Source: a virus
Length of the DNA stretch: 64,000 nucleotides
Direction: 5' to 3' (one strand)
Virus record (IMG/VR): IMGVR_UViG_3300047470_000343
Coordinates: 29,786 to 93,785 of that record
Shown: in pieces, positions 32,163-58,515 of the stretch
Layout of the letters: each line of letters starts with the position of its first letter
Numbering within the stretch: the stretch's first letter is position 1
Position numbers and translations under genes: made by a program
The notes under the pieces: model-generated
The model's input: the letters and a program-made list of their open reading frames with translations, nothing else
Database searches by the model: none
Told to the model about the DNA's origin: nothing

Positions 32163-32197
32163 CCGGGCGGCCCGCGCCGACCCTTCCCGAACCGGTT

Positions 32198-32221: not shown

Positions 32222-32230
32222 GCTTCTCGT

Positions 32231-32838: not shown

Positions 32839-32847
32839 ACCGGCCGC

Positions 32848-33096
32848 TCACGGTCTGACCTCGACCACGCTGGTCTTCTGCCTCAGCAGAGCCAGCACCG
32901 CATCCGCGTCGCCCGCATCGAGATCCCGCCAGGGCCCGAGGGGGCCGAGCAGCACCGGAGTGCTGGCGTACTGCTCGACCATCGCCCTCACCCGGCGGGA
33001 CCCGGTGACCGGGCCCCCGCCGGGGATCTGGACCTGATAGGCGGAACCGTCCTCCATCGTGCCCGTCACTAGCATGCTTGCCTGCCTTCCTGTCAC
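32848..33096 (-). CDS. Small hypothetical protein coupled to the giant gene
   Basis: GTGA overlap with the giant gene stop (alternative ATG 33075). Confidence 0.7.
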   Translation of the reverse strand: MTGRQASMLVTGTMEDGSAYQVQIPGGGPVTGSRRVRAMVEQYASTPVLLGPLGPWRDLDAGDADAVLALLRQKTSVVEVRP

Positions 33097-36000
33097 CGAG
33101 TGGCGAGCAGTCCCAGAAGGAACGCCCGCAGGTCGTCATCCCTGTACCAGTCGCCCGAGAACATCGTCGCGAGCCCGCGAGCCACGATCTGGTCATCGGT
33201 GACGTCCTCCGCCCGGCCGCCGAACAGCCGCTCCAGCAGCGCATCCAGTGCGCTGCGCCGGGCCCCGGGCCGTCCGGTGTGGGTCCGGGTGAACCCGAAC
33301 ACCTCCTGCGCGGCCACCAGATCCGGGTAGGAGCGCTGGAGGTGAGCCACCAGAGCGTTCACCGCGGTGCCCCGGCCGCCGTCGCCGAGGTCAGCGACCG
33401 TGGCCGTACCGGAGTCGGCGTCGTACGAGCCCGCGTCACCGTCGACCGCGGTCACGAACCGTGCAGTGCGGTCCGCGAGCCACTCCCGCGGCACGTAGCC
33501 CGCCGCATCGGCGAGCGCTCGCGCCGCCGCCTGGTCGCTGTTGTGGCTCAGCGTCAGCCGGTTCCTGCCGCCGGGGCCCATCTCGCGGACCTGCGCGAGG
33601 GTGTCACGCACCGCGCCGGGCAGCGCGGCCGTGTACGCCTGGTGGAGCCGGTCGGCTTCCTGCCGGGCGTGCTGGGCTTCCACCTGCGCCGCGGCGATCT
33701 CCGGACCGAGGTCCGGGGCGCCCTGGCCGGCCGCCACCGCCCGCAGGTTCCGCACGCGGGCCTCCGCCCGGTCCTGGTAGCGGCGGGCGTGCCGCACCGT
33801 GCCGTGCGGGTCGTCGCCGAGCTCCGGCGCGGCCGCCATCAGCCGTGCCACGACATCGGCGTCCACGTCCGTACCAGCCGCGCGCACCGCGGCGAGATGC
33901 CGCAGGGCGTACCGCCCGGGTCCGCGGTCCGCAGCCCGGTCCATCGTCCAGCCCGTGCCGTCCTGCACACCGGGGAGCTGACCCGCGGCGAGCGAGGACC
34001 GGGTGGCCGGCCGGTACCAGCGGCGGCGCCGGGAGACCTGACCGAAGTGGCCCGGGGCGGGCAGCAGCCGCGCCCAGTGCGCCACCTGGTCGGCCAGCGA
34101 CATGCCGTCACCGTGCCGGGGCAGGGAGCGGGCAGCGGCCGCGATACGGCGCAGGCGCCGAGTCTCCGGCCACGACCGCACCCGCCGCACCAGAGCCTTG
34201 CGGAACCGGTTGATGGCCTTGAACGGATACGCCACCGCGGCGGCGATGGCCTTGAGGAACGCGGCCACCAGCTCCATGATCCGGCGGGCGATCTGCGCGA
34301 GCGCCGCCTTGATGCGGGCGAGCACTCCCGGCCGCTCACCTTCCGGCAGTTGGGCCGCGATGCGCTGCGCTGCACCGTCACGGCTGTCCGCCATGCGCTG
34401 CGCGAGCCGGGCGACGATCTCCGCGCGCCGCTCCGGGGTCAGCGGCCCCGTGTCGGCGTCCCGGAGCGCTTCGCCCAGCGCGCCGTCGACGTGGCCCTGC
34501 ACCTCGTCGTCGACCCGGGAACCTTCACCCGTCTCGGGCTCGGTGTCGCCGGTCGTCTCGCCGAGGTCACCGTCCGCGTCCGTCGTCCCGGCGTTGGTGT
34601 CGACGTCGGGCTCATCCGTCTCCGGTCGGTTGCGCATCGACTCCGGGATGAGCCGCAGCAGGTCCGCGGCACGCGCCGCGGTGTCCTCGGGTGACTCCCC
34701 GTCCAGCGGCTCCAGATCGTTGAGCGTCTGCACCGCAGCCTGGACCGCGTCGGCGCGCGAGCTCATCGCCGTCCGCCGCAGCTCGGCGAGCAGCCGCTCC
34801 CGCTCGTCGCCGGTGATGCCCGACCCGTCGACCACCGCCACCGCGTCCTGACGCAGCCGCCGCATAGCCGACCGGAGCGCACCCGCCGTGATGTTCGCGG
34901 CGATCTGCTCCCGGAGCTGGTGAATGCTGCCCGGGGTCTGCGTTCCTTCCACCGCGGCGTCGACCACGGCCCGCGCCACCCAGTCGCCGTAGTCGGCCGT
35001 GAACGCCGCCGTGTCCAGGCCCGCGTTCGGGTCCCGGGCCTCGTCGTCATCGTCGGCCGGAACCTGCGGCTCGGGCAGTTGGTACAACGGGTCACCGGCG
35101 GCCATGGTCCGCTCGGAGCGCTGCCCGTTCCCGTCCTCCACCGTCAGGACCCGCACCCCGCCCGGGGCGTCCTGGACGTCCGTGACACGGTACGAGGCCA
35201 TCTCGTCGGGGTTCGTCTCGTCCGGCAGGGCGATGGTGTCGCCCACGCCGACCGAGCCGACCGTGCCCGGCTCCGGCCGCCCGGCCGGCGCACTTCCCGT
35301 GTCCGGGGCGGGCGTGCTCGGGGTCTCGCCGGTCAGGCGACCCAGGTTCGCGGCGAACCAGGCCGCCGCGGGCCGCTCCCGGTCCATGACGGTTGCCGAC
35401 TCCGGCAGGACTCCGGCCAGGATCTGGAACGTCTTGGTGCTGGGCGGGCCACCGGCCACACCCTCGATCTCTACCGTGACCTCCTTGTCGCCGACGTCGA
35501 CGGACTGCACCTTGCGGGTGAACCAGTCGCTGCCGTTGTGGCCCGTGCCGAATACCAGGTGATCGCCCGGCTTCAGCTCGGTCGCCTTCGCGATGCGGCG
35601 GTCCGCCTGATCCGTGACCCCGCCGCCTTCAAAGCTGCCGTCGTAGGGCAGCGGCTGGAACGGGGCACGGGCGCTCACGCTCTGTCGGATGAAACGGCCG
35701 TCAGCGTTGGCCAGCAGGAGATCGACGGTCTTCCCGTCCGCGCTACGGATCCCTTCCACGATCAGCAGACGGGAGGGCTCCCCGTTGACCGGCGCCACGA
35801 TCACATCACCGGTACTCAGGTAGCGCGCTTCAGTGGTCATCCCGCCGTCGTCGCTCGCCCCGGTCTGCCCGGCCGCCTGGTCGAGCCGGTCAGCGGCCCG
35901 CTTGGCTGCGCGGCCCTCCGCCGTCGACGAGTCGGCGTTCTGGCGGAGGCCTTCAGCGACCGCGGACGCCTGTCCGGGGGTGACGGGCAGGTCCCGGGCG

Positions 36001-39000
36001 ATCCGGGCCGCGCCCTGCTGCGCATCGGGGGCGTCGCCGGGGGCGGTACCCCGGTCGGCGACCGCGTCGCGCTCCTCCGGTGCAAGCTCCGGGTCCACGG
36101 TCGGCCCGGTCACGGGCTCCACCGGCGGGGCCGGCTCGCGGCTCGTGATCGGCTCCTCACGCCGCGGGGCGCCCTGCTCGCCGTCCTGCCCGTTGTCGGC
36201 GGTGTCGCCGATGACGCGCAGGTCCGTGACGGGCATGGGCTTCATGCCCTCGGTGGTGGCGACGGTCGCGGTGTCGCCGTCCAGCTCCTCCACAGTCCCG
36301 AGCATGTTGCCGTCCCGGTCACTGACCCAGTTACCGACTTCGACACGATGCCCGTCCGACGTCCAACCGGACGGGCGCGCTGCGCCGCCGTCGATGACGT
36401 TGAGGGTGCTCGGCTCGTGCGCGTCGTCGGTGCGGTCGTCGCCGAACTGCACCCGCACACCAGCGGCGTTCGCCCCGACCACGACGCCTTCGCGGCCGTC
36501 GTCGTCGGTCACGACCGACCCGGGGAACAGGCCGTTGCCGCCGCCGTCGGTCGCCACACGGTCGGCGATCCGGCCGGTGAGGACGTCGGAGTCCGCGCCG
36601 GTCTGAACCGTGGTGGACTCGTCGCCGCTCTCGCGGGTGGCGCGGGCCGCCGTGGCGTCCGGGTGCACCCACACCGACTCGCGCTTCGTCGAGCCGTCCG
36701 GGGTCTCGGCGATCAGAACGCGCACCATGTCCTGAACACGCCGGGCCCGGACCGTGGGGACCTGCGTAGGCCCGTCCGTGACGTACCCGGCCAGGGTCCG
36801 CGCGGTGCCGCCCTTGGTGATGCCGTCGATCCGCACCACGTCACCGACGTTGATGTCGGAGACCTTGACCCACTCCGCGGGCCGGCCGCCGACAGGCTCG
36901 GGCACGGCCGGGCGTTCCGGCTCCGCCGTGTCGTCTGCCGTCTGCTGCGGGGAATCCGCGGCCGGAGACTGCGGGCTGGCCGGGGCCTGCGCCGGGGCCG
37001 GGCGCTCCTCCGCCGGGGCCGGAGCCGAGGTCTCGGCTTCGGGCGCCGGACGGTCCTCCGCCGGGGCCGGAGCCGGGGTGTTGGCTTCGGGCGCCGGACG
37101 GTCCTTCGCCGGAGCCGGGGTGTTGGCACTGGCGTCCGTGGCCCGCTGGGGGGTGACCTCGGGGGTCTCGCCGACCTGGCGACCGTACTTGTACTGGTCC
37201 ACCGGCACGTTGACGTCGTCCGCGGACATCAGGCGCTGCGCGTTGTCACCGATGGGGATGACGAACGTATGCCCGGAGAGGTCGTGGCCCCTCGCCTGGC
37301 TGTCGGCGACGGTGATGCGCAGAGCCTTCTGCCGCTTCTTGTTGATGGTGATCGAAGCCGGACGGGGCTCACCCACCACGTAGCCGGTCCTGTCGCTGGT
37401 CGCTCCCGGGTAGCGGTCGGTGATCCGGCCGTTGAGGTGCACGATGTCGCCCTCGCGGAGGTCAGTGACGGGAACGCTCTCCGCCCTGCCCATGCCGCCC
37501 TGGTCCACAAGCGTGGTGAGGAACTGCTTGGCGGCCCGCGCCTTGCTGGTCTCGTGGTGCATGGCCCGCGGGTCCTCGGGCCGCAGTACGTCCAGGTACT
37601 CGCGGATCTCATCGGCCAGCCAGCCGGGGCCGAGGATGTGAGTGTGCTTCAGATCGGCAGGCTGGTACGTGTAGTGAGTGGCGTCGAGCCACCGCAGCTC
37701 GTCGTGCAGGTGGTCCAGGTCGTCCGCCACGTTGCCGCTGATCGTCTCGCCGCGACCAAGCGTGTCGACCATCGCCCGTATCGCGCCGTACCGCTCCATG
37801 TCGGCAGGGTTGTCGTTCAGGGTCTCCAGGCCGCGCAGCCCCTCCTTCTCGGGCGGGAACGCGTTGCCTGGGTTCAACCTCTCGAAGTCCCAAGCGATGT
37901 CGGGGTGGACGATGCTCAGGTCGGGCGCGCCCTGTTCCATGTCCCGCAGTACGAGATGGGCGATGGCCGCATCCCGGGTCGAGAATGTGCCGGGGTGGAA
38001 ATAGGTGCCGAGGGGCATCTCGCCCTCCCACCGCTCCTCGGGCGGTGTCATGTAGAAGCCGACGGTGTGCGGTGCGCGCAAGGAGCCGATCAGCCGGCCG
38101 TTGCGCCAGACCTCTTCGCGGCCGTGGTCCGAAACGAGCTTCGGGGACGGCGTGAACCCCTGAGCGGCGAGTTCCTGCATGCGCTCGGGGGATCCGAACA
38201 GGGCGCGCTCACCCTCTTCGCTGATGATGCGGTTCTCACCGGTCTCGTACTGCTCCAGCTCCTTGTGCGTCGGGATGCGCCGACCGTCCACGCTGCCCGC
38301 CTGGCCCGTTGAGTGTGCGGCGTTGATGCCGTACTGGGACGTGGGCGCCGGAGCGTCACCGGCGGGGGCCGCGCCCTGACCGTCGCCCGCGCCTGGAGCG
38401 TCGGAGCCGCCCGCGGAAGGGGAGTTCGAGGATGAGGCGCCGTCCTGGCCGCCGACCGGCGTCGCAACGCCCTCGCGTGGCACGTCCGCCCCGCCGGCCG
38501 CAGGGGCGTCGGTGTCAGGGAGGCGCGCGACCTTGTCGTCCCGCAGGATCGTCACGCCGTTGCGGACGTTCGGCTTGGCGTCGGGGTTGTCGCTCAGGTG
38601 CAGACGCCAGGCCTTCAGACGCTCCCCGTCGCGGGTCGCGGTGACCTCGCGGGCCGGGGCAAGGAGGAAGCCCTCCCGGGTCACCTTGTTCCCGGCGGTG
38701 TTCTGCGTCTCGACGCGCACCCGGTCACCACGCTGCGGCTCGTCCGGGTTCACGATCTCGGCGCGCGGCTCGTCGCTGATGTCCGGGACGGACGGCGTCC
38801 GCTCCGGCCGCTGCGGCGTGCTCTCCCCGGGCTCGGGGACGTAGTCCCGGTACTGCACATCGGCGCCCTCGGGGATGGCCACGATGTCGCGCGGGTGGAA
38901 GCGCCTGGGCTGGTTTTTGACCCCCCAGTAGCCGTCTCCCTGCCAGTCGGCGGAGCGGTCCACCACGACGTTCATGTGCTGGGTGTTCTTGCCGTCCCGG

Positions 39001-54000: not shown

Positions 54001-57000
54001 GCGGTCTCAGACGCCATGTGGGCCAAGTCCCGCTCGTCCTGCTTCGCCTGCTTGTCGGCGGCCGCACGGTTCTTGTCGGCCTGCTCCTTGTCCTGCTCGC
54101 GCACCAGGTCGGCGACAGCCGCCTCCTGGGTCAGGAACGACTTCTTCGAGGTGTAGCGGGTGCCGTAGCCGAGACGGCTCCACTTCCAGCGGCCCGTCGA
54201 GCCCCTGAGCGCCGAGGTATGCCCCTGTTCGCCGTCGATGGTGACGGGGATGCTGCCGTTGTCGTTCGGGGTGCCGAGGGAGACGCGGGCGAGCTGCTGC
54301 GCGTACGCCTGCTCGTCCTGCTTCTGCGCCGCGGCGAGGATGGCCTCAGCCTCGGCCTGGCTGCGCGCAGACTTCTCCGGATCGTCGTCATAGTCGCCGT
54401 CCGCCCAGTCCTTGACGGCCCGCTCGTACTCGGCGTCGAGGCTCTTGCGCGGCTCCTGCGACCAGTCCCGCTTTTCGGGCGTCGCCTGCTCGGGTGCCGG
54501 CTGCGGGGCGTTCTGCTCGGGGGCGTCCGGGTTCGGGGCGTCGGTCTGCGTCGGCTTCCCGGCGTACGGGGTGCCGTCGGGCCGCATGATGTCGCCCACC
54601 GGGTGCACGCGCGTGCCGCGCTCGGCGCGCACGAGGACCGACCCGGAGTCCTTGTTGACGCCCATGACGTCGCCGACACCGTCGGGAGAGTTGACCTCGT
54701 CACCGACCGCGGGGAAGTCCCCGTCAGCCGAGGCTTCCGGCGCGTTCTGCGGGGCCGGGGCGGGCTGCTTCTGTTCGGCCTGCCGCTTGGCGTAGTCCTT
54801 GGCGATGTACGAATCGGCGTCGCCGTGGTCGATGTCCCACTGGCCGCGGACGTCGTCCATCCGCTGCCCGAAGTCCTTGCGCCAACTGTTGACGCGGTTC
54901 GGGTTGCGGCGGAAGAGCTCGGGATCCCACCAGTCCACTTCCTGACCCGGGCGGGACGGCTCCTCGACCTCACGGCCGACCGCCAGGGCGAACATGCTGG
55001 CGTCACGCCAGGACTTGAAGCCCTTCCCGGCGCCGCCCGTGTAGCCGATATCGCGGCCGTCGTAGGCGCGGACGACGTCGAACTCCTCGGGGCCGCGCTG
55101 GACGATGGCGAACCCGAAGTGGTCCGCCGCGGTGACCTTCCACTTGGGGTTCGCCGCGATGGCGCGGAGCATGTTCTTACGGTGCTCGTCGAACGCCGGG
55201 TCGCCGCCGTTCTTCCAGTACTCGCGCAGCTCACTGGTATTGCCCGGCTTGTGGAAGCCGCCGGTGCTGTCGTCGTCGTTCTTCGGCCCGATGTGGCCGA
55301 CGGCGATGTTCTGCCGGGGGATGCCGGAGGTGTCGGCGATGGACTGCGCGGCCTGCACCAGCGGGTTCGGTCGCTCGGTCGGAGCCGCCGGAGCGTCAGG
55401 CTTGGGCGTGGCGGCCTGCTCGTCCAGCCACTTCTGAGCAGCGCGAGCCCGGAGGCTCTTTCGCCTATCCATCAACGGTCCCTCGTGGCCGTTGCCGATT
55501 GCGGCGATCAGCTCGATCCACTTTCGGTCGCGCTCCGGACCAGCCGGGTACTTCCACGATCCGTCGGGGTTGACCATCTCGGGGTCGACCGTGTGACGCA
55601 GGAAGGTGATCGCCGCGCCATCGGAGCGGAACAGAGCGAAGGGCAGCGGGCGACCGGTCTCGACGTCGCGCAGCTCCACGGAGTCGGGGCCGTTGCGGTA
55701 GTCGGAGCCGTGGTTGTGTACGAACGCGATGTCGCCCGCCACGGCACCGGAATGCTTGTTGGCGGCGGCCTCAAGGTTGTCTCGGGCCGAGGACGGAGGG
55801 GCTTGAGAGACGAGCTGCTTCCAGTGCTCGCGCACCTTGTCGTACTCGCTCTGGCCCCCGGCCGGCCGGTGGTACGGCTCGGCCGTACCGGTGTTGGACG
55901 CGGCAGCCACGACCGGCGCGGTCGGAGCCGCAGGGGCCGGAGTCGGGGGGGCCGGGGTGCGCTTCGCGGTCGCGCCCTCGCGCTTCTTCGCCGCCTTGTC
56001 CGCGAAGACCTTCTTCGCATCGACGCTGGCCTGGCGCACCATCTCCTGGCCCTTGGGCGACTCCAGGCGCTGGTGATAGCCGGGGGAGTCCCAGTCGAAC
56101 GGCTTGCCGTCGAGCTGGGCCGCCTCCAGGCGGTTCGCGAAGTCGACCGCTTCGCCCTTGCGGTCCGACATGGCCAGGCGGACACCGCTGCCGGAGACGA
56201 TGACGGCGTATCCGGACTTCCGCTGACCGTCCTTCTCCACGGTCATCTTGGCGATGACGAACCGGCCGCCTCGGGAGAGCTGCGGCTTGTCCAGCTTGGC
56301 GAACAGCGCGGCGGTTTCCCGCTGGTGCCGCTCCTGCGTGGCCTTATTGGTGGTGTACGGCTCCAGGTTGCCCTTCTGCCAGTACTTCTGAAGCTCGTCG
56401 AGGTTCTTGAACAGCTTGCCGCGAGGACCGGAGCTCTCACTGGGGGGAGCGGGGCGCCAGGCCCGAGGGACAAGCGGCTGGATCTTCGGGCGCTTCTTGC
56501 TCGGCGCGGGGATCGGCTCTTCGCCGTGGCTGGTGAAGCGTTCGTGAGCAAGATTCAGGGCGTCGCGCAGGTTGGCGGCGTACCGGGCGACTTCGTCTTG
56601 GCCGTCATCGTGGGCCAGTTCGGAGAGCTTGTCGGCGTCGTCCGCGAGCCATGACAGCCGCTCGACGTCGTCCGGGTCGAGCTGGTTCTTCTTGTCGTCC
56701 CGGACGTCGAATCCGGTGCCCACGTCGGCCAGGTTGTCGTAGAGCTCGTCTGCTTCGGTGTTGTGCCAGTTGGCCGGCCAGACGCCTTCCAGGTCCCCGA
56801 AATACTCCTCGCTGAGGTCGCGTACGGCGCGGCGGGCGTGGCTGGTGTCCCAGAACTGATTGAAGTGGTCGCCCACCTTGGGGCCCCGTGCGCGCAGCGC
56901 ATCCCCGTTGCCCATGAGGTGCCGGGCGTGCTCCGTCTCTCCCTGGTAGTTGTCCATGGGGAGGAGGTCAGAGAAGCGCGGGGTTGCGAGGTTGCCGCGC

Positions 57001-57602
57001 CGCGGGGCGGGCAGAGGGTCGCCGTCGTTGTCGTTGATGTGCGACATGGCGCGGCCCTGCGGGACGAGCGGCTGATCGTCGTCGTTCTCCGGGTCGTCGG
57101 GGCCGGCGCCGAGATCCTGGCCCTCGATGTCCTCGCCGATCGGCTGGTCCTGGTCGTCGCGCTCGTGGACGGTGTCCGGGGTCAGGCCGTTGTCGCCGCG
57201 GTCGTTCGCGCCGTGGTTCTTCTCGGGGTCGTCGTCCGTCTCCGGGTCGTGCGGAGCGTGGCCACCGCCGCGGGTCTCGTCGCCGAAGCGCCGTTCGTCC
57301 TCGTCGCGGACCTTGGACTTGCTCTTGGTCGGCGCCGTGCCGTCCGGGCGGCTGACCATGGTCAGCCGCGAAGCGTTGATGCGTGACTGCTGGTGGGTGG
57401 CCAGGTTCTCCACGAGCACGTCACGGCCGCCGAGCGCGCGCAGCACGCGGGCCATGCCGCCGCCCCACATGCGGGCGATGCCGCCCGTCTCAACGAAACG
57501 GCCCTTGGAATCGCGGGGGTGCAGATCCGCGTTCCAGGTGCGGCGCAGCCTCTTGGTTTCGAGGCTGGCGAGGAGGCGGTCTACGGCGCTGGTGATCGGC
57601 AT
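33093..57602 (-). CDS. Giant polyvalent protein (~8,169 aa): DarB-like N6-adenine MTase + SNF2 helicase, UvrD-like SF1 helicase, many SH3/KOW-like repeats
   Basis: HPRDSKGRF N-terminal motif; LEPGSGVG and GNVPF; HEVGAGKT, VDEAH, GTGTNVQ, PWRPAD..QR.GR; ALAGTGKS, DEAQD, VGDSNQAIYGFRGA, LTQSFRFG, TAHKSKGLE, YVAVTRA; leaderless ATG 57602. Confidence 0.93.
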   Translation of the reverse strand: MPITSAVDRLLASLETKRLRRTWNADLHPRDSKGRFVETGGIARMWGGGMARVLRALGGRDVLVENLATHQQSRINASRLTMVSRPDGTAPTKSKSKVRDEDERRFGDETRGGGHAPHDPETDDDPEKNHGANDRGDNGLTPDTVHERDDQDQPIGEDIEGQDLGAGPDDPENDDDQPLVPQGRAMSHINDNDGDPLPAPRRGNLATPRFSDLLPMDNYQGETEHARHLMGNGDALRARGPKVGDHFNQFWDTSHARRAVRDLSEEYFGDLEGVWPANWHNTEADELYDNLADVGTGFDVRDDKKNQLDPDDVERLSWLADDADKLSELAHDDGQDEVARYAANLRDALNLAHERFTSHGEEPIPAPSKKRPKIQPLVPRAWRPAPPSESSGPRGKLFKNLDELQKYWQKGNLEPYTTNKATQERHQRETAALFAKLDKPQLSRGGRFVIAKMTVEKDGQRKSGYAVIVSGSGVRLAMSDRKGEAVDFANRLEAAQLDGKPFDWDSPGYHQRLESPKGQEMVRQASVDAKKVFADKAAKKREGATAKRTPAPPTPAPAAPTAPVVAAASNTGTAEPYHRPAGGQSEYDKVREHWKQLVSQAPPSSARDNLEAAANKHSGAVAGDIAFVHNHGSDYRNGPDSVELRDVETGRPLPFALFRSDGAAITFLRHTVDPEMVNPDGSWKYPAGPERDRKWIELIAAIGNGHEGPLMDRRKSLRARAAQKWLDEQAATPKPDAPAAPTERPNPLVQAAQSIADTSGIPRQNIAVGHIGPKNDDDSTGGFHKPGNTSELREYWKNGGDPAFDEHRKNMLRAIAANPKWKVTAADHFGFAIVQRGPEEFDVVRAYDGRDIGYTGGAGKGFKSWRDASMFALAVGREVEEPSRPGQEVDWWDPELFRRNPNRVNSWRKDFGQRMDDVRGQWDIDHGDADSYIAKDYAKRQAEQKQPAPAPQNAPEASADGDFPAVGDEVNSPDGVGDVMGVNKDSGSVLVRAERGTRVHPVGDIMRPDGTPYAGKPTQTDAPNPDAPEQNAPQPAPEQATPEKRDWSQEPRKSLDAEYERAVKDWADGDYDDDPEKSARSQAEAEAILAAAQKQDEQAYAQQLARVSLGTPNDNGSIPVTIDGEQGHTSALRGSTGRWKWSRLGYGTRYTSKKSFLTQEAAVADLVREQDKEQADKNRAAADKQAKQDERDLAHMASETAMKQHVLAALREASNQMFPAINDIRELHGEQAARDLAVQAADVLDQYERGELTPSDAISKFRAALDAVQRATRGMDARRNIHVQSLLRTARENVDIALKALADHTQRSNDGGVRGSRSNVLEDVPAQRGGSDADERGAGGVRPGAVGGDRGGDRGSDGRVAAASGGGDGRRGSGQRAEVREDASSGTGAARDGVRDGEGAGHGDEGHAAGGDSGSVAFGTPEQQATAPSFEPPASGETLAPSSPLNRAKANIAAIEILHRLEAENRPATPDEQTELARYSGWGAVPHLFKPRPEGQFAPLAEKLRQLLTDKEWADANDNVLNAHYTDPQIVQQVWAAVEGLGFDGGMVLEPGSGVGNFIGYAPDGAEMTGVEVDPITARIAKALYPHSEVRHESFGDTRAPNGTFDMAIGNVPFGRYKVPDLVHNKGGHSIHNHFILKSLDLTRAGGLVSVITSALTMDGHGKRAESARMEMAEKGELVAAIRLPSGAHQRTAGTPVMTDLLIFKRRDKDKTFTSGRARNGEVKRPSERSQNDPPMWVHSLPTYALPGQTPPKSDVPSEGDEPPVFYNSYFHDHPEQVLGKLAVGSGQHNDHELRADGDGNLLANLDRALKRSVAAAKDMGLGYQAAPENRRKVVLLPPGSARVDGHVQAEPDGTFTQVRDRMVHPFTVPKNQVDEARKLLAVRDTFQSLLAEESRKDADESLIERLRAGLNEQYEAYAAKYGAINRFTWTHRTVTNAETGEQEKKAYRKRAPRGGLFAKDPTMANISPLDEYDDNTKQTTRAAVFTKRQGKFREIAQHADDPQDALAIVMDQDGRLTADGMARVMNTDPEDAVARLLAVRSVDPDTGVEYPLAFRAPDGKLVMAADYLSGNVREKLAEARQAAVDDPQFDLHVEQLERVVPADLSTGEIAAPIGASWIGREPVEQFLRETLGTDQIKVSWQGGALWAVDLPKSARKAMAYRTKDTWSAPGYDAVNIVEAILTNKKIRVTQTVNGKSEYDSKGTEDAEAKAELLREEFTDWLWRDPDRGEKYKRLYNDNFNAMAPRSYDGQRRTIPGLVEWFKPHPHQHAAVARMVNEPSVLLAHEVGAGKTAEMAMGVMELRRLGLVNKAAIVVPGHMLEQFRHEFAELFPESVANNRILTASSDDLAGKGRREFIARAAAGDYDAIILTQTAFESIQMRPEVQEAYITRRLERLREKIFKQQALDGAENDTRLVKRMQNQLKNLEEKLDRKLSGLKDAAGLNFEDMGIDYLVVDEAHMFKNLATPSSIAAIEGANRASDLEMKLEWLRQRSNTGRVVTFATATPVANSIAEVHTMMRYLRPDLLEQLGLMDFDDFASTFAQMVSAVERGADGTFSEKVRLAAFQNVPELLRLWRSFADVKTSEDLDLPVPEVAGGKAVTITMPMSEAQEAYEQQIKARAARLSGGNVDPKEDNYLKLLTDGRLSALDPRLIDPDAGPGNKLPTVADNVTRIYEQTKDAVYPTDPKNDPAPHATPGGLQIVFLDLGTPKDPGKTRKRRKKATSEDADTGDQAAAATDDGNDDETYTDFSTYDELKKLLVARGIPSEKIRFIHEAKDDAAKARLFHEARTGKISVLLGSTAKMGTGTNVQLRAVALHHVDAPWRPADVDQRNGRIIRQGNANEEVAIFQYATERSTDAKFWEAIARKAKFIRQLMRGSLNERVVEDIGKITFDADEASALTAGDPHLIAQAQIKPIVKRLRARFNAHQRSQEGFKRAIRDAEFYAGQAAKYVAALEDAKAKRKPTRGADFNARIGTTDFEGKEGRDEARSALNTTARAILVGGRQGMYNANTPPKVIGQIGGLDVTAKYERVWNTYQGRTEHAVTIDVPAISGSSKTYEEHELVDIDDKPQMLPLMRIEDALASIEGKIAREEGFLSDKQRAAEQATARVGKKFDLTDEYDTANRQLEILNEIMRLKAQPAGGEEDAKRREGQIKALDAELHELMGEQEDVLSQVAARDVNLSPKTPAPPAVTQDDKGQVKFVWPTDEARKAVRDKKLAAKREAFLARVERQQAAPAQSDALTMNESELTGETERLGELIANDEASEADVMRHAGLQREQQRRAKNRSASEPSSKPSGQGGTTMLDPKQVRNDLAQISPDTEPTASDDTGPQPAQKPEQPWQASDFKRGDVIRSSDFDDAREDELRSSIVLDPDYAPGELLVHLPDVDMRDVVAYDEVYRNDGQSTDPNHRDLIEGRTQQLGKDDSSDWGDPEDSPDPNEEFFQNFGSTLITDPADTKPAAEDTPKPEETPAAAAPTSGIPGTGPKPPTPRNTPPKEERPRPARKQADTVRPFANEREWRAGIAGVEGAQGQVTTAAEATWGREIPAPARSLRDNVFQAIAAQESGDTDDTASALGAAHEDAQRLRNRLTESDRQGMAEPLDNFLRVTDDYLARHAVTVEKRRREDAQRDRIEREAQEQFRRSLTGTPAPAPETPAEEPTTNETEPPAAPNQPAAASGPTPAPSAADDGEVGSLFTANKADNSAALGSLRARYEEQFGGQARGRVAQLSDELFTFLDQQWGEAAGDVFGPASETALHLADALHDQEMTPEERSGRFGVQVGAVQRELRARRDRLSQPEREEQPAPEPVPAPAAGTGTGGSAPQRQRTAPSDARPVPATPPADMEGGQIGEEIDTLDEQIEPLKDATDSVDLAYRLRLEQRRFELEEEERRRWKPTVERDEDGKVIPRKRGDVIRDRLAGYGLNDAEATGLVHRVEDLPAAKAGGYSDEDWARIDAAAAANESYPPTEEQGIIIDGAARRGLNMAVMALAGTGKSSTLKMLSHRMPGKKIVYLAFNRSVANEAREAQARGEYAKNLTASTANGYAAKVADKRLNNRLPNHKKGGFKKLSAQQIADRMRWYDTVKAGNRDLAPGGAATVAELMIKTWAKSADAEMGPQHITGAKTAQEARDLFNAVKPLADRMWANLSDPTKGDADEDLPMDFDYIVKMWAVGGFKIDADTLFWDEAQDVNPVMEGVVRAAIDQGVQVVAVGDSNQAIYGFRGASDALSKLPVDARATLTQSFRFGPAVANVGNRFLRLLGTRMRLKGFDRKDSRLGNIKPGDETMVIARTNAGVALAAVEGLAAGRTIAVSGGVKDLQEFVTAARTLAKGERTSHAELARFNGKSYEDILEEVNSDPELQQLKSLFALLEKHSDEIDKLMESGAQAAETENVGGRVWVTLDWNDPKVDQLKRWLGDGKTNGVGKLLYDRESRRYYYEPGKRTESFTKNGRTINYQVDNKLSLEDAKAKIDAHLAKLYPQEDTGGGRLVDEKKPHDLLVTTAHKSKGLESERVRIADDFRGPEYDDNGHIKWDTVPEDEDLRVAYVAVTRATDVLDSGSLGWVFEAVNDDDPTQPPTGEYRRDWVLDDFKPGDRINFQEEDGTGRVGEVARLDGPGLIARYDVDGQQREQYISTAQVQRRNGQDRPQLPVASEDELNQAVAEGRYPSAGGDAPVKLDAGQVRNDLAALKTPEAAPKAPADDIIAGNEEPPGPDATPYEVERYRRRFDIAYKVGYYVDYRNHDGQTVTARVVGTHGNPILRDSSGNEFQANPDWYADHFIAVRADDGSALPRPAWADTLPEGFRAVSPDEIQPGHVIRLGSSGDPLWGSRFVMSAKTDADGHTSLYTAVLNTQGGGGTGYDPRQLVTLDETEESRQAAEEALRRSDVKESAKLRGITLPKELPASTIAKPDREAPESSTAPEWNNGDWVVTPNGEGRVILAEDGKVVVLDGGGAPRTYEPRQLSMPGETRTAEHDAPTSQETARAEKRQQDLESAQSPEGLGLFYGARLANLDLEEGRGQVLDEDGNAVGWIRRRGTVWHGQDARGGQTAGGTAQSDSDPLYGPREAAQAVDSNRRDSGMRVALKDTAWRHLRPEEGSDIVQYSELSDVQREEFFKLVKDWEKSSDPELSEAAKHWGQGGLNYQQMNRLAQEAAATADSVDASTPEGRRRQAVLRRLADKIRAQASRAWHSWQTMPPPGEPDVPRDVDAPDWVPYGHRETSEAGTPVKLDAAQVRQELTDLNGGDSSPAANGDQGEAGSETEAGGETISPDQARLNDYVRVEVSDTVDRIRVHEGYLLANPRKGKGHRPRHGDYDAWILYLGTGPNQSPGRGNQVDIPADQKIQRLPAPEAPALGPVDMESVKPGQYIRVTVPDADGSEVTREGYVVSSSARRDGPRRDDPVMSWTVHIADTPHAAYEQDDVIEVPAGHEVERMAPPGPVPELEIPDVPGLDLSQYTRDDQESVDEYRKWAGVWANPAPDGPRNALLDRVKNMPGPAYMPLSPKGAPQWIGSAGDAFPLDQFDENARHLLAQYDGDQRDFLAGHAASMREATQRLAGEFRAASREIMLPRIATRSGLKDAAEKLNARWAEDSEQIRQVVPDQIAAAVVDADRHGLTEQQVKDFLVGVAGGDDPEQKANGLTGAFPEVRRSLISARDDVTSYYAGFHAWRGQDDDQSFAGYHHYNARRSALGAEYVPVADPRTGSGQLIVGEAELPDGMRWTRLQNLKPGDLYRPARGWFRNENRFDGLGAVHRVINLHADGKEGRTRTTSLSTGSHTEHPGDWVVHLTAPEPALRKKANAAVRDQWVQREIEEDDRKWEAAQAISRRPEGEAADVASLKEGERLRVRGSSEFLGGIYVAEGDLLQPPERAQMWRNGTQVDGWRLAVSTRGHAGDDIYVADGESDEWAERLSPKSNTAAPDDAPNPEATDTTAGVAPDAAPKSDAPGTGDPNTDAPETDKPQTDESQTDEPGTDEPNTDESENDNNDEERDRRRRRRNGLGNGVPSGGGGGGLPGGPGMGLPNFPDGSTPSTGSGRDRGDGSGRTPTGTRQADNANPAAELPDEYAALRQRYDGDMVPASEIEVGDWVHIVGADQIYNEPEHLVGRVLHTRQFNGGVRIEVESRDPLKGGDAVQRESASLYDGELAERLPEGNPGREDTSDLKRRMETWEERASASRVPAPEGWQAVDGSRIQPRIGDRFRIVSRRDGKNTQHMNVVVDRSADWQGDGYWGVKNQPRRFHPRDIVAIPEGADVQYRDYVPEPGESTPQRPERTPSVPDISDEPRAEIVNPDEPQRGDRVRVETQNTAGNKVTREGFLLAPAREVTATRDGERLKAWRLHLSDNPDAKPNVRNGVTILRDDKVARLPDTDAPAAGGADVPREGVATPVGGQDGASSSNSPSAGGSDAPGAGDGQGAAPAGDAPAPTSQYGINAAHSTGQAGSVDGRRIPTHKELEQYETGENRIISEEGERALFGSPERMQELAAQGFTPSPKLVSDHGREEVWRNGRLIGSLRAPHTVGFYMTPPEERWEGEMPLGTYFHPGTFSTRDAAIAHLVLRDMEQGAPDLSIVHPDIAWDFERLNPGNAFPPEKEGLRGLETLNDNPADMERYGAIRAMVDTLGRGETISGNVADDLDHLHDELRWLDATHYTYQPADLKHTHILGPGWLADEIREYLDVLRPEDPRAMHHETSKARAAKQFLTTLVDQGGMGRAESVPVTDLREGDIVHLNGRITDRYPGATSDRTGYVVGEPRPASITINKKRQKALRITVADSQARGHDLSGHTFVIPIGDNAQRLMSADDVNVPVDQYKYGRQVGETPEVTPQRATDASANTPAPAKDRPAPEANTPAPAPAEDRPAPEAETSAPAPAEERPAPAQAPASPQSPAADSPQQTADDTAEPERPAVPEPVGGRPAEWVKVSDINVGDVVRIDGITKGGTARTLAGYVTDGPTQVPTVRARRVQDMVRVLIAETPDGSTKRESVWVHPDATAARATRESGDESTTVQTGADSDVLTGRIADRVATDGGGNGLFPGSVVTDDDGREGVVVGANAAGVRVQFGDDRTDDAHEPSTLNVIDGGAARPSGWTSDGHRVEVGNWVSDRDGNMLGTVEELDGDTATVATTEGMKPMPVTDLRVIGDTADNGQDGEQGAPRREEPITSREPAPPVEPVTGPTVDPELAPEERDAVADRGTAPGDAPDAQQGAARIARDLPVTPGQASAVAEGLRQNADSSTAEGRAAKRAADRLDQAAGQTGASDDGGMTTEARYLSTGDVIVAPVNGEPSRLLIVEGIRSADGKTVDLLLANADGRFIRQSVSARAPFQPLPYDGSFEGGGVTDQADRRIAKATELKPGDHLVFGTGHNGSDWFTRKVQSVDVGDKEVTVEIEGVAGGPPSTKTFQILAGVLPESATVMDRERPAAAWFAANLGRLTGETPSTPAPDTGSAPAGRPEPGTVGSVGVGDTIALPDETNPDEMASYRVTDVQDAPGGVRVLTVEDGNGQRSERTMAAGDPLYQLPEPQVPADDDDEARDPNAGLDTAAFTADYGDWVARAVVDAAVEGTQTPGSIHQLREQIAANITAGALRSAMRRLRQDAVAVVDGSGITGDERERLLAELRRTAMSSRADAVQAAVQTLNDLEPLDGESPEDTAARAADLLRLIPESMRNRPETDEPDVDTNAGTTDADGDLGETTGDTEPETGEGSRVDDEVQGHVDGALGEALRDADTGPLTPERRAEIVARLAQRMADSRDGAAQRIAAQLPEGERPGVLARIKAALAQIARRIMELVAAFLKAIAAAVAYPFKAINRFRKALVRRVRSWPETRRLRRIAAAARSLPRHGDGMSLADQVAHWARLLPAPGHFGQVSRRRRWYRPATRSSLAAGQLPGVQDGTGWTMDRAADRGPGRYALRHLAAVRAAGTDVDADVVARLMAAAPELGDDPHGTVRHARRYQDRAEARVRNLRAVAAGQGAPDLGPEIAAAQVEAQHARQEADRLHQAYTAALPGAVRDTLAQVREMGPGGRNRLTLSHNSDQAAARALADAAGYVPREWLADRTARFVTAVDGDAGSYDADSGTATVADLGDGGRGTAVNALVAHLQRSYPDLVAAQEVFGFTRTHTGRPGARRSALDALLERLFGGRAEDVTDDQIVARGLATMFSGDWYRDDDLRAFLLGLLATR
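53354..53671 (-). CDS. TnpV-like protein nested out of frame within the giant gene
   Basis: RBS GAGGAG 8 nt before GTG; GC3-rich codons; FWKTYRP...MRARERVLHEMVY. Confidence 0.7.
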   Translation of the reverse strand: MAYEDLVRTFWKTYRPSEVAAMPTNAALEEFARERSAEIVAAIEDLTDEWLPPLVAGTDVVDRANERKSVKMRARERVLHEMVYGMEKEPGTETKDMPPVEIPAL

Positions 57603-57609
57603 GCGGCGG

Positions 57610-57637
57610 ACCATGCACACCGGGGGTGGTTAGTGTC
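57610..57637 (-). promoter_or_regulatory. Conserved promoter-like motif for the giant gene
   Basis: GACACTAAC-13nt-CATGGT, 7 nt before ATG 57602. Confidence 0.75.
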
Positions 57638-57673
57638 GCGGGCTCGATTTCTGGCCCGTGGCCTGCGGCGGTG

Positions 57674-57889: not shown

Positions 57890-58515
57890 GATGTCGTCTC
57901 CATCGCTGAGGAGGGCAGGGGGCGGGGGCCGGTGCCGTCGTACGGGGCGGCGAGGCCGGCGTTCATCAGTGCGCGAATGAGGTCGTGGCCGTAGGGGGTC
58001 GCGATGGTGGCGAGGTAGCGGCCGTACTTCTCCCGGCGCTCGGTGTCGACGGTGAACGCGGGCCCGTGCTTGGCGACCCAGTCGCGGACCCAGTCGGCGG
58101 CGTGCTTCCCGGCGTCGGTGTTCTTCTCGGCGGTGTTGATGCCGAGGAGCCGGACGCGTTCGTAGGCGCGGAGTTCGAACCCGAGGTCGATGGCGAGGTC
58201 GAGGGTGTCTCCGTCGATGACGCGGGTGATGCTCGTGGTGTAGGTGTGCGGCGCCGGGGCGTCGGTGAGGGTCGCGAGATAGCGGCCCTTGGCGTCGCGG
58301 GTGGTCTGGACGGTGAGCGCGCCTCCGCCGGCCTTCAGGTGCGCGCGGGCCCATGCGGCGGCCTTCTTCGGGTCGTCGGTGGCCGTGTCCGCCGTGGCGA
58401 TGGCGGCCAGGCGGACGCGTTGGGTCAGGTGCAGGTCGAACCCGAGGTCGATGTCGAGATCGAGGGCGCCCGCGCGGCCGAGGCTGAGGATGGTGGTGCG
58501 GTAGGTGTGCATCAC
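57886..58515 (-). CDS. Thermonuclease (SNase-fold) with a duplicated degenerate N-terminal copy
   Basis: RVIDGDT...DLGF...RVRLLGINTAE...EKYGRYLA in the C-terminal half. Confidence 0.88.
   Translation of the reverse strand: MMHTYRTTILSLGRAGALDLDIDLGFDLHLTQRVRLAAIATADTATDDPKKAAAWARAHLKAGGGALTVQTTRDAKGRYLATLTDAPAPHTYTTSITRVIDGDTLDLAIDLGFELRAYERVRLLGINTAEKNTDAGKHAADWVRDWVAKHGPAFTVDTERREKYGRYLATIATPYGHDLIRALMNAGLAAPYDGTGPRPLPSSAMETTS

Follow-up and report, generated by a model that had tools for sequence, protein, structure and literature searches.

DarB of phage P1, a head protein of 251 kDa, is described as present at about 40 copies per virion and as directed to the capsid by its N-terminal 30 residues (PMC9024508), and, according to PMC12810830, the Dar proteins of P1 are ejected along with the DNA. 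In the wider setting of polyvalent proteins, Iyer et al. (2017) report an MTase-SNF2 dyad together with a UvrD-like SF1 helicase in a 12,242-aa plasmid protein of Streptomyces viridifaciens; they place UvrD-bearing giants in conjugative-transfer-like contexts and propose that these proteins act on transferred ssDNA. The gene considered here is related to both descriptions. It occupies more than a third of the window, the 64,000-nucleotide stretch of viral DNA that was analysed (positions 29,786 to 93,785 of IMG/VR record IMGVR_UViG_3300047470_000343), and its product is a very large member of the already described polyvalent class that is thought to travel with DNA.

What is added here is the assignment to a phage-plasmid family, an architecture of fixed ends and swappable cargo, a nested gene in the +1 frame, and three internal peptides that resemble the end of the protease polyprotein. 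The giant-gene family belongs to the Gilgamesh-like Streptomyces phage-plasmids of ~114-135 kb, and the phage that hosts this gene probably also lives as a plasmid. The main texts of the literature searched contained nothing on this giant family or on the nested gene; actinomycete giants in a phage context may be listed in the supplement to Iyer et al. (2017).

The giant gene among head genes

The gene and its neighbours are laid out as follows, in the coordinates of the window.

58512..60971 (-), portal protein fused to a MuF-like domain at its C terminus; same block, upstream of the giant ORF
57886-58515, SNase-like nuclease
57674-57888, 71-codon ORF, read as a membrane protein
57629..57642 (-), promoter-like motif of the late genes, CCCGCGACACTAAC, ending 27 nt ahead of ATG 57602
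33093..57620 (-), giant ORF, 8,175 codons from GTG 57620 or 8,169 from ATG 57602, stop codon at 33093-33095
29412..31409 (-), polyprotein of prohead protease and 2H phosphoesterase, with an uncharacterised C-terminal half
27944-29245, capsid, downstream of the giant ORF

The giant ORF is real, conserved and not an assembly chimera. Its translation contains no stop within the frame at 33093..57620, and the ATG at 57602, in frame with GTG 57620, gives a protein that begins MPITS and has HPRD at residue 28, the position found in most relatives annotated at NCBI. The GC content at the three codon positions (0.72/0.49/0.89) is like that of the neighbouring genes, and the predicted mass of the chain is ~880 kDa. 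The single uninterrupted frame of ~8,169 aa that the first-pass annotation had read at 33093-57602 is thus borne out. The possibility of a chimera, which it had also named, is refuted by collinear open frames in four other viral contigs (8,152, 7,699, 7,243 and 7,243 codons) and by Ka/Ks values below 1 in every window: 0.44 overall, 0.09-0.66 in full 300-codon windows, and 0.09-0.78 over all windows. In three further rhizosphere metagenome runs, contigs of at least 95% identity cover every one of the 30 bins into which the 20 kb compared were divided; these contigs are short pieces, none of which spans the giant gene, and the listed joints, all with sides of 20-23 letters, were distrusted. No RNA run containing the giant ORF sequence was listed. 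Around aa 1316-1420, composition and selection signature fit the +1 frame and not the giant frame.

As first proposed, the gene lies between portal and prohead protease among head genes and has its own copy of a shared promoter-like motif, at 57629-57642 on the minus strand. The same motif precedes the capsid, protease, tail-tube and other minus-strand genes. It was recognised by reading intergenic regions side by side, whilst a scan for upstream 12-mers found no shared motif. With up to 3 mismatches the 14-mer gives 23 hits against 14.1 expected, a number reached in none of 100 shuffles, and all 11 copies with up to 2 mismatches lie on the minus strand, 9 of them outside called ORFs. Scanning 31300-33400 for sigma-70 promoters and terminators gave nothing.

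The P1 darB gene also adjoins the portal (prt) and prohead protease (pro) genes, and both P1 and the window element are of the phage-plasmid type. Another counterpart is gp48 of Streptomyces phage Gilgamesh (4,624 aa, 'hypothetical protein'), which occupies the same locus between the protease and a portal-MuF fusion (gp46, whose annotation reads 'portal and MuF-like fusion protein'). The position is also kept on a circular Streptomyces plasmid of 132.6 kb with portal, capsid and ParA/ParB genes. Giant proteins annotated 'UvrD-helicase / helicase-related' on ~114-135 kb Streptomyces plasmids and contigs (such as NZ_CP107821.1, 5,247 aa) share both family and gene order with the window protein, and many of them carry both helicases. 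These giants are shorter (4.5-7.5 kaa). This siphovirus-type head-module context differs from the conjugative-like context described by Iyer et al. (2017).

Enzyme modules and their carrier

The domains recognised along the chain are listed from the N terminus.

57276..57602 (-), conserved N-terminal domain of ~105 aa, with LHPRDSKGRF at 57495-57521; candidate capsid-targeting or anchoring end
54906..56399 (-), ~110-aa repeat domain, three copies (aa 408-518, 594-697, 796-905)
47769..54269 (-), DarB-like module (aa 1118-3284), N6-adenine MTase followed by SNF2-type ATPase
52467-53111 (-), N6-adenine MTase of the DarB-like module (aa ~1504-1718)
48930-50966 (-), SNF2-type ATPase of the DarB-like module (aa ~2219-2897)
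43821..45734 (-), UvrD-type SF1 helicase module (aa 3963-4600), from Pfam, PHROG and motifs
36666..41846 (-), region with six copies of a ~75-aa small domain (aa 5259-5340, 5358-5428, 5824-5901, 6282-6358, 6706-6787, 6907-6985)
33096..36905 (-), conserved carrier core (aa 6906-7438) with the C-terminal module (aa 7439-8175)

The N6-MTase, SNF2 and UvrD/SF1 motifs reported at first reading stand up at their positions by Pfam, PHROG and intact catalytic motifs. PHROG 10089 ('DarB-like antirestriction') matches aa 1118-3284 with E=0 and 1249 bits. Within this span the Eco57I-type MTase match at aa 1599-1688 scores 25.3 bits, exactly Pfam's cut-off, SNF2-rel_dom at aa 2273-2646 scores 35 bits (cut-off 24.9), and Helicase_C lies at aa 2757-2845. 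The MTase motifs (VLEPGSGVGNF at aa 1554, NVPF at aa 1617) and the SNF2 motifs (GAGKT, DEAH, QRNGRIIRQG) are intact, so that a DarB-type MTase and a C-terminally fused SNF2 ATPase are both present. The DarB-like identity proposed for this part also holds: alignments with P1 DarB are collinear (E 7e-22, 5e-22 and 4e-9), the first joining the MTase regions at 29% identity and the second the SNF2 regions, and NVPF is common to both proteins (aa 180 in P1). Judged by sequence, this part of the window protein is a true homologue of P1 DarB. The module lies inside the chain here and at the N terminus in P1 DarB, so that the N-terminal signal of P1 has no counterpart at the equivalent position. The window protein is 3.6 times the length of P1 DarB (2,255 aa) and adds to it a UvrD-type helicase, two families of repeat domains, and a lineage-specific N terminus and C-terminal core.

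In the second module, Pfam UvrD-helicase (aa ~4010-4229) scores 37.4 bits against a cut-off of 23, and UvrD_C (aa ~4499-4558), at 23.2 bits, falls under its cut-off of 25.6. A PHROG DNA helicase covers aa ~3963-4559 (E 2e-52), and SF1 motifs I, II and VI are intact (GTGKS 3996, DEAQD 4189, VAVTRA 4550), which places the module with the UvrD/Rep/PcrA-type SF1 enzymes. By single-sequence comparison with the PDB, which gave this match only, its nearest solved structure is F-box DNA helicase 1 (FBH1, 9xzj_F, E 4e-16). NCBIfam returned only weak SNF2 and UvrD pieces from the giant protein; the precomputed annotation of relatives lists PF28553-PF28555, families that local scans never returned. Over aa 1501-3000 and 3901-4500, which include the DarB and UvrD modules, Ka/Ks is 0.15-0.40, indicating purifying selection, and the values for the UvrD module (0.15-0.23) are among the gene's lowest.

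Like other polyvalent proteins, with their 2 to 15 effector domains in chains often longer than 2,000 aa, this one carries several (MTase, SNF2 and UvrD in 8,175 aa), and it lies beside phage packaging or late genes, one of the two settings of the class, the other being conjugative genes; here portal-MuF is upstream, and protease and capsid are downstream. The signature metallopeptidase and LPD domains were not found: a local Pfam scan of the giant protein gave no peptidase or LPD family at E<=0.01. MuF-domain polymorphic toxins and effectors reportedly have an N-terminal MuF in the effector's own chain; membership in that class was rejected, as the giant protein has no Pfam match to MuF and the MuF-like domain sits on the portal protein instead. 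That polyvalent proteins of mobile elements combine such domains agrees with Iyer et al. (2017). The earlier view that two helicase superfamilies in one chain are unusual was too strong for this family: among 120 listed giant relatives the DarB module occurs in all and the UvrD-type module additionally in 32, and Iyer et al. (2017) report the same combination.

The other recognised parts of the chain we regard as the carrier. Its N terminus was correctly singled out by the first-pass annotation: HPRDxxGRF is fixed in the family, most relatives that possess the N-terminal domain have it between aa 25 and 42, and LHPRDSKGRF occurs once in the six-frame translation of the 93.8-kb contig. The alignment of this domain has many invariant columns, and its identity to Gilgamesh gp48 is 62% in one comparison and 44% in another. 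Since no similarity was detectable outside this lineage, including in a PDB profile search, a capsid-targeting role for the candidate domain rests on analogy.

Repeats surfaced in windowed BLAST; self-BLAST of the whole protein gave none. Of 61 family proteins, 59 contain between one and five copies of the ~110-aa domain, which has no family match; its middle copy here coincides with a ~170-aa stretch that is absent from the window protein's three closest relatives. The ~75-aa domain is probably beta-rich; the only hits of a PDB profile search were short ones to designed beta-trefoils, considered unreliable. Three copies of it are found in gp48.

The C-terminal module of ~730 aa forms part of a conserved C-terminal core of ~1,270 aa, which is 35-43% identical to gp48, and aa 7801-8100, within the module, are the most constrained segment of the gene (Ka/Ks 0.09). 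A hydrophobic stretch near aa 7780-7800 was noted by eye. There are only 52 matches to the module among 1.84 billion representative proteins, of which the large ones (2.4-7.2 kaa) end with it and the others are shorter proteins or fragments. The core has no Pfam, PHROG, PDB or Atlas assignment. For the C-terminal module, a PDB profile search found designed helical repeats only, and the Atlas homologue P0123 (scores <=0.80, TM <=0.29) gave no leads. Short relatives have weak PHROG matches to 'minor head protein' and no meaningful Pfam matches. The core is the part common to all members, and because it has no assigned function the protein could serve chiefly for something other than anti-restriction.

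Comparison within the family points to an architecture with constant ends, an HPRDxxGRF N terminus and a C-terminal module of ~730 aa, and exchangeable cargo in the middle, where the DarB and UvrD modules are variously present or absent. Gilgamesh is the only phage with this C-terminal module among 50,697 phage records (two records). Its gp48 shares with the window protein the N-terminal domain, an internal segment (51%) and the C-terminal core but, unlike it, has no DarB, UvrD, Pfam match, frame-shifted segment or internal tag of the kind described below. The window copy (8,169-8,175 aa) is the longest member with this C-terminal module in these searches, followed by one of 8,152 aa on a viral contig; a relative of 8,746 aa lies on a 496-kb linear plasmid.

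Internal peptides and a nested gene

Two further features lie within the giant ORF, namely three short peptides, here called tags, that resemble the end of the protease polyprotein, and a small gene in another frame.

29415-29465 (-), last 17 residues of the protease polyprotein, VHLDPTEVKAALAALAL, the model for the internal tags
47646..47699 (-), tag 1, ending TTMLDPKQVRNDLAQISP, ~27 aa past the end of the DarB module match
43539..43592 (-), tag 2, ending PVKLDAGQVRNDLAALK, 80 aa past the end of the UvrD module match
41883..41936 (-), tag 3, ending PVKLDAAQVRQELTDLN
53354..53671 (-), 105-codon gene nested in the +1 frame; GAGGAG precedes its GTG start, and its TAG stop directly adjoins the beginning of the conserved DarB module

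A loose tag pattern occurs four times in the whole contig, at the C terminus of the protease polyprotein and three times in the giant ORF, and the C-terminal peptide itself is conserved in 7 of 7 related elements. Across 61 family proteins the pattern gives 57 matches against 1.2 expected, where the counts compare a pattern with shuffles and a small HMM missed even known copies. Tags follow the DarB and UvrD modules at set distances (the 80-81 aa offset after the latter recurs in 6 of 16 UvrD-bearing relatives) and are present in none of 10 DarB-less members; the strict pattern is found in only 27 of 45 DarB-bearing members. A 95%-complete relative (G004) has lost all three as clean deletions and another (G002) retains one; the tags are thus dispensable. 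The internal tags carry Q-V-R and the protease peptide T-E-V-K, which is also contained in the capsid's probable delta-domain boundary (SDTEVKTLGD). The motif E-x-K, a candidate site for cutting by the protease, does not occur in the giant protein (0 against 1.1 expected). The tags were rejected as universal cleavage sites because G004 has none and E-x-K is absent. Short terminal peptides carry proteins into the procapsid in HK97, where the prohead protease has such a C-terminal tail, and in T4, where internal proteins have such a sequence. The tags of the window protein, candidate docking peptides, differ from these in being internal and optional.

The codon-position GC signature shifts over aa 1316-1420 of the giant frame, and a frame-shifted segment of this kind is found once in each of 5 DarB-bearing genes and not in gp48. 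Among close relatives, Ka/Ks over the nested gene is 0.44-0.67 when it is read in +1 and 1.0-1.31 when the giant frame is read, its SD and start codon are present in 5 of 5, and a DNA-level check found the giant frame open across the stretch in all 5 DarB-bearing relatives. These comparisons show, so far as sequence can, that a separately initiated small gene overlaps the linker before the DarB module. The case is a clear one, and this conserved, overlapping same-strand gene within the giant ORF is apparently the product of gene fusion. It occurs in 14 of 401 Streptomycetaceae genomes, always in +1 relative to the DarB frame. Four of 16 members of the nested-gene family match Pfam TnpV (PF14198) weakly (best E 7.2e-5), the window's own copy gave no TnpV match at E<=1, and a PDB profile search with the nested protein found nothing. 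A loose parallel only is offered by TnpV-carrying elements described as inserted into snf2 genes of Streptococcus suis ICEs (PMC9815147); 'TnpV' and 'overlapping' are absent from the text of Iyer et al. (2017). An analogy with P1 Ulx was rejected, as there is no similarity (E 0.097) and P1 ulx lies downstream of darB.

What the giant protein may do

The gene was at first read as an injected multi-enzyme protein. The enzymes are there; missing from that reading was a lineage-specific carrier, which in gp48 exists without them. We consider it fairly probable that the product of the giant gene is a polyvalent protein of the head interior in a Gilgamesh-like phage-plasmid, an injected carrier with acquired anti-defence cargo. 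The carrier would consist of the ~105-aa HPRDxxGRF domain, the repeat domains and the ~1,270-aa C-terminal core, and the cargo of a P1 DarB-type N6-adenine methylase/SNF2 translocase and a UvrD-type SF1 helicase. The gene would be transcribed together with the late head genes, and its product taken into the procapsid through the N-terminal end, as for P1 DarB, perhaps aided by the internal copies of the protease polyprotein's C-terminal peptide. On infection the protein would leave with the DNA, and the methylase/translocase, perhaps with the helicase, would act in cis on the entering molecule so that restriction is blunted; the same action in cis may aid establishment of the plasmid prophage. 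We infer late expression, ejection, enzymatic activity and the effect on restriction, and packaging and injection by analogy with P1 DarB and from the position of the gene. The virion packaging of P1 DarB, cited as precedent in the first-pass annotation, agrees with its description in PMC9024508; a DarB-type head protein that shields DNA in cis against type I restriction is known from P1 only. Weighing against this explanation, a chain of ~880 kDa would have to traverse the tail unfolded or in pieces.

A more elaborate history can be proposed, which as a whole we hold only tentatively. In it a lineage-specific head carrier would have captured cassettes from actinomycete plasmids that were ready-made for anti-defence. 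The DarB cassette would have come with a small upstream partner gene, and the carrier frame would have joined DarB by reading across that partner in another frame, with the result that the partner survives, independently translated, in the Gly/Arg/Asp-rich linker. Each cassette would have brought or gained a C-terminal peptide mimicking the capsid-docking peptide of the protease polyprotein. If this is true, one mRNA yields two proteins, an injected multi-enzyme chain of ~880 kDa and a small protein that works with DarB.

It is unlikely that the protein instead works in the producing cell, made late and left unpackaged, where it would methylate or remodel progeny or plasmid DNA or serve plasmid maintenance or replication. 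This reading accommodates the late-type motif and the place in the head module just as well. The element itself is a plasmid prophage and has a ParA-like gene, related UvrD-bearing giants lie on large linear plasmids without phage genes in the 42 kb shown, and matching UvrD-type modules on plasmids are mostly on those typed as conjugative (894 of 1,244 records). However, both the cultured phage Gilgamesh and the plasmid examined have the gene between portal and protease, a DarB-less carrier holds the same locus, the tags reproduce a peptide from the protease polyprotein of the head, and the P1 homologue is described as acting from the virion (PMC9024508, PMC12810830).

Also improbable, although it complements an injected head protein rather than excluding it, is that the carrier performs an essential job, as an internal core, an ejection or pilot protein, or a head-filling protein, with the enzymes as dispensable passengers that matter little. 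Every full-length member has the N-terminal domain and the ~1,270-aa core, including gp48 and further relatives that lack DarB and UvrD, and the strongest constraint falls in the C-terminal module; the hydrophobic stretch and the weak 'minor head protein' matches of short relatives point the same way. Against passengers of little consequence, the DarB and UvrD catalytic motifs are all kept, at the low Ka/Ks of their modules.

That the chain is a polyprotein, cut by the prohead protease at or near the tags or elsewhere into separate enzymes inside the head, is very unlikely: the tags do lie at module ends, they resemble a protease peptide whose T-E-V-K recurs at the probable delta-domain boundary of the capsid, and a need for processing of polyvalent proteins has been argued (Iyer et al. 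2017), but the internal tags have Q-V-R in place of E-V-K, E-x-K is absent, G004 has no tag at all and no peptidase domain was found in the chain.

The context is corrected in one respect: UvrD-bearing polyvalent giants, earlier assigned to conjugative-type settings, are here genes of a phage head module. Carriers with and without DarB and UvrD, in Gilgamesh and in plasmid prophages, make possible tests of targeting, ejection and anti-restriction in cis in actinomycetes. If the N-terminal domain or the tags are loading signals, they would be usable to load foreign proteins into the heads of Streptomyces phages. Streptomyces is a host rich in restriction and other defences, and the devotion of about one-fifth of a ~130-kb phage genome to one gene suggests that this protein is important for infecting it.

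The giant gene and its setting

The gene is a single open frame at 33093..57620 on the minus strand, 8,175 codons long from a GTG. The upper bound of 57602 in the first-pass annotation proves to be an in-frame ATG (MPITS...), from which the frame has 8,169 codons and the HPRD motif falls at residue 28, matching most annotated relatives. In a window of about 70% G+C the frame has a G+C content by codon position of 0.72/0.49/0.89, a pattern shared by the neighbouring genes, and the order of genes on the minus strand is as follows.

Genes of the head region, in minus-strand order
58512-60971 (-): portal protein with a C-terminal MuF-like domain
57886-58515 (-): SNase-like nuclease (PHROG endonuclease, E 1e-41; Pfam SNase)
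57674-57888 (-): 71-codon ORF, read as a membrane protein, between nuclease and giant gene
33093-57620 (-): giant ORF
between giant ORF and protease fusion (-): small unassigned ORFs
29412-31409 (-): prohead protease fused to a 2H phosphoesterase
27944-29245 (-): major capsid protein

Minus-strand late genes share an upstream motif of 14 bases, one copy of which lies 27 nt ahead of the ATG of the giant gene. Allowing up to 3 mismatches there are 23 matches against 14.1 expected, a count reached in none of 100 shuffles; allowing up to 2, all 11 matches lie on the minus strand, nine of them outside called ORFs.

The source contig (93,785 bases, of which the window is 29786-93785) is classed in the IMG/VR record as linear and estimated to be 69% complete. 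That the ORF might be an assembly chimera, an alternative raised in the first-pass annotation, is refuted by four other viral contigs with the same N-terminal end and open frames of 8,152, 7,699, 7,243 and 7,243 codons, and by Ka/Ks values below 1. Three of these four genes were rebuilt from their loci for alignment. The 8,152-codon relative is collinear with the window protein from end to end (48–98% identity per 250 residues); the window protein has about 170 additional residues at 501-750, which coincide with a third copy of a repeat domain of about 110 aa. Against the closest relative, Ka/Ks is 0.44 overall, 0.09–0.66 in full 300-codon windows and 0.78 in the final 75-codon window, and is lowest in the UvrD module (0.15–0.23) and at aa 7801-8100 (0.09). 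Contigs from three further rhizosphere metagenome runs, short pieces none of which spans the gene, cover at 95% identity or more 30/30 bins of the 20 kb compared.

Among cultured phages the closest is Streptomyces phage Gilgamesh (129 kb), whose nucleotide sequence is 74% identical across part of the capsid region. Its gp48, a 4,624-aa ‘hypothetical protein’, occupies the same locus, flanked by a ‘portal and MuF-like fusion protein’ on one side and by the protease on the other. For the C-terminal 737 aa of the window protein, Gilgamesh is the sole match among 50,697 phage records; matches are also found in eight Streptomyces plasmids of 114–133 kb, seven of them typed as non-mobilizable. One of the eight, circular and 132,597 bp long, carries the portal, a 5,247-aa giant gene, the protease fusion, the capsid gene and ParA/ParB in conserved order. 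When aa 1400-2900 were compared with 5.8 billion proteins, 412 of the 623 scored were giants (4,496–14,307 aa), and the several dozen closest were actinomycete proteins (Streptomyces, Kitasatospora and others), encoded for the most part on 120–138-kb contigs. The synteny with Gilgamesh, together with these plasmid matches and contig sizes, places the window in a family of phage-plasmids resembling Gilgamesh; P1 is another element of the phage-plasmid type.

Several other features of the window deserve mention. A ParA-like ATPase gene lies within the tail module on the strand opposite to the tail genes. A near-perfect palindrome of the CCCGTGTCTCTCAGTGAGAGACACGGG type occurs twice at 21038-21134, between the ParA-like operon (19236-21037, +), which it directly follows, and the tail-tube gene; it is a candidate centromere site or bidirectional terminator. 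Beside an ERF-family gene (551-2110), a 700-base non-coding stretch (2111-2808) is dense in direct and inverted GGGTTCGCCTT-type units, an iteron-like array that is possibly an origin. The SNase-like nuclease gene overlaps the portal stop by 4 bases and could be further head cargo; where the window has this gene and the 71-codon ORF, Gilgamesh has only a ‘membrane protein’. Further enzymes are encoded in or next to the head module. One, exonuclease-like, follows the capsid gene (26330-27592, -), where Gilgamesh has an annotated metallophosphoesterase; the other, a PCMT-like protein methyltransferase, lies upstream of the portal block (62161-63354, -).

Enzymatic modules on a lineage-specific carrier

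Profile searches with Pfam and PHROGs, and a check of motifs, placed the methylase, SNF2 and UvrD-type domains where the first-pass annotation had put them; every catalytic motif looked for is intact.

Enzymatic domains of the giant protein
aa 1118-3284: ‘DarB-like antirestriction’ (PHROGs, E=0, 1249 bits; far clearer than Pfam)
aa 1599-1688: Eco57I-type methylase (Pfam, score exactly at the cut-off)
aa 2273-2646: SNF2-rel_dom (Pfam)
aa 2757-2845: Helicase_C (Pfam)
aa ~3963-4559: DNA-helicase family (PHROGs, E 2e-52)
aa ~4010-4229: UvrD-helicase (Pfam)
aa ~4499-4558: UvrD_C (Pfam, under its cut-off)

The N-terminal domain, both repeat domains, the C-terminal core and the stretches aa 3285-3960 and 4600-5230 drew no usable match in sequence and profile searches. 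Six copies of a domain of about 75 aa lie between the UvrD module and this core. The segments shared with gp48 are listed below; the methylase and helicase region has no counterpart in gp48, which has no Pfam match at all.

Segments shared with Gilgamesh gp48
aa 20-184: N-terminal domain, 44% identity
aa 6064-6278: internal segment, 51% identity
aa 6910-7325: core segment, 35% identity
aa 7439-8175: C-terminal module, 43% identity

A comparison of the C-terminal module with 1.84 billion representative proteins gave just 52 matches; the module reaches the very C-terminus in the large ones (2.4–7.2 kaa), and the others are shorter proteins or fragments. To view the family, 11 segments of the window protein were mapped onto all fetched relatives. 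Where relatives have the N-terminal domain, HPRDxxGRF mostly stands at residue 25–42; most relatives have a DarB module and some a UvrD module, and aa 6906-7438 and 7439-8175 are retained even by members that lack enzymes altogether. All of the 120 giants listed have the DarB module and 32 the UvrD module too, 16 of these with this C-terminal module. Because the carrier segments persist where enzymes are absent while DarB and UvrD come and go, the enzymes are cargo on a lineage-specific carrier. A rival reading gives the carrier itself a mainly structural or ejection role. No member with this C-terminal module among the search returns is longer than the window copy (8,169–8,175 aa); plasmids carry still larger relatives. 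The identity profile is mosaic: the UvrD module is 97% identical to that of the closest relative, G001, and the DarB module, at 65–88%, is no nearer to G001 than to more distant relatives, which suggests recent cassette exchange between elements.

A nested gene and recurrent tag peptides

Across aa 1316-1420 of the giant frame, G+C by codon position shifts from about 0.7/0.5/0.9 to about 0.9/0.7/0.4 and position 1 takes most substitutions. These signals, Ka/Ks and the start site define a nested gene.

Nested gene
53354-53671: about 105 codons, +1 relative to the giant frame, Shine-Dalgarno sequence and GTG start

Each of the five DarB-bearing genes compared as DNA has exactly one such segment, always just before the methylase, and gp48 has none by codon-position G+C. 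In all five the +1 frame keeps a non-repetitive protein of about 105 aa with a GAGGAG- or GGAGG-type Shine-Dalgarno sequence 5–8 nt before the GTG; the giant frame there is Gly/Arg/Asp-rich. For three close relatives with a located +1 ORF, Ka/Ks over these bases is 0.44–0.67 in the +1 frame and 1.0–1.31 in the giant frame (the comparison with a distant plasmid copy is saturated). The conserved part of the DarB module begins right beside the TAG stop.

Homologues of the small gene occur at 15 loci in 14 of 401 Streptomycetaceae genomes sampled (one copy is annotated in RefSeq as WP_127354346.1), always +1 relative to a long frame that runs into a DarB-like module. At seven loci the long frame is open across the small gene, which is thus nested; at the other eight it opens shortly before or within it, and the small gene lies just upstream of a shorter DarB-like gene or overlaps its 5′ end. 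We infer that the two genes were formerly a pair and that the carrier frame was joined to DarB by read-through of the small gene in another frame. The giant frame runs across the nested gene without a stop, so that the long chain would remain the default product. Pfam TnpV matches 4/16 members of the small-gene family (best E 7e-5), the window copy not among them. A loose parallel is described in Streptococcus suis ICEs, where TnpV-carrying mobilizable elements insert specifically into the ICE snf2 gene (PMC9815147); in the present case, DarB-type SNF2 genes have a weakly TnpV-like gene at their 5′ end.

An acidic linker followed by VHLDPTEVKAALAALAL closes the protease-2H polyprotein, and a C-terminal peptide of this type is conserved in 7/7 related elements, one of which, Gilgamesh, has a polyprotein with an overall identity of only 40%. 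Three look-alikes (tags) lie in the giant protein at aa 3311, 4680 and 5232, and in a six-frame translation of the whole contig the loose pattern occurs only at these three and the protease C-terminus. Across 61 family proteins there are 57 matches against 1.2 expected from shuffles, with at least one in 35 proteins (seven of the 57 are a different motif inside the DarB module). With a stricter pattern, a tag is found in 27/45 DarB-bearing members against 0/10 DarB-less members; the next tag is at most 63 aa from the end of the DarB match in 17 of the 27, and lies 80–81 aa past the UvrD match in 6/16 UvrD-bearing members, as in the window. Given this rarity, excess, restriction and recurrence of offsets, the resemblance is not due to chance. 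We treat the tags as candidate docking aids, optional ones that may travel with the cargo cassettes, optional because the relative G004 (95% complete) lacks all three as clean deletions and G002 retains one. HK97 provides a precedent for a capsid-targeting tail peptide of a prohead protease. The capsid protein also has T-E-V-K in common with the protease peptide, within ..SDTEVKTLGD.. at residues ~93–100, a possible delta-domain cleavage site about 98 residues from the N-terminus.

Relation to P1 DarB and a possible mode of action

P1 DarB aligns collinearly with the window protein over the methylase (29% identity, E 7e-22), SNF2 (24%, E 5e-22) and a further segment (E 4e-9); both have the NVPF catalytic motif, and in the P1 record darB directly adjoins prt and pro. 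DarB (251 kDa) is described as a P1 head protein packaged in about 40 copies, whose N-terminal 30 residues are enough to bring a reporter into the capsid and whose localisation is helped by Ulx (PMC9024508). The small gene has no similarity to Ulx. Polyvalent proteins were defined by Iyer et al. 2017, who took DarB as the archetype of what they named the MTase-SNF2 dyad (PMC5512222); these proteins, the dyad and its co-occurrence with UvrD are already known, and dozens of relatives are present, unremarked, in public Streptomyces assemblies. One, on the 496-kb linear Streptomyces plasmid NZ_CP107890.1, is an 8,746-aa UvrD-bearing giant followed in tandem by a 4,569-aa toprim-domain giant, with no phage gene in the 42 kb examined; the window gene is a close cousin lying in a phage head module. 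Against phage records, the UvrD-type module matched stand-alone helicases only, at 31% identity or less in the 25 best rows. The literature searched yielded no description of a phage-plasmid head-module context for UvrD-bearing giants, of the carrier-plus-cargo architecture and its narrowly distributed C-terminal module, of the nested partner gene or of the scaffold-like tags.

An alternative is that the giant protein acts only in the producing cell, and another that the chain is processed into pieces; the E-x-K motif, a candidate protease cut site, is absent from it (0 against 1.1 expected, not significant). We think it rather more probable that late transcription is followed by loading into the procapsid, exit with the DNA and action on that DNA as it enters. 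The giant gene would be transcribed together with the head genes. On the model of P1 DarB, the conserved N-terminal end of the chain would direct it into the procapsid, perhaps with assistance from the tags. Having left with the DNA, the methylase and translocase, and perhaps the SF1 helicase too, would act on the incoming molecule, so that restriction would be countered and the establishment of the plasmid prophage aided.
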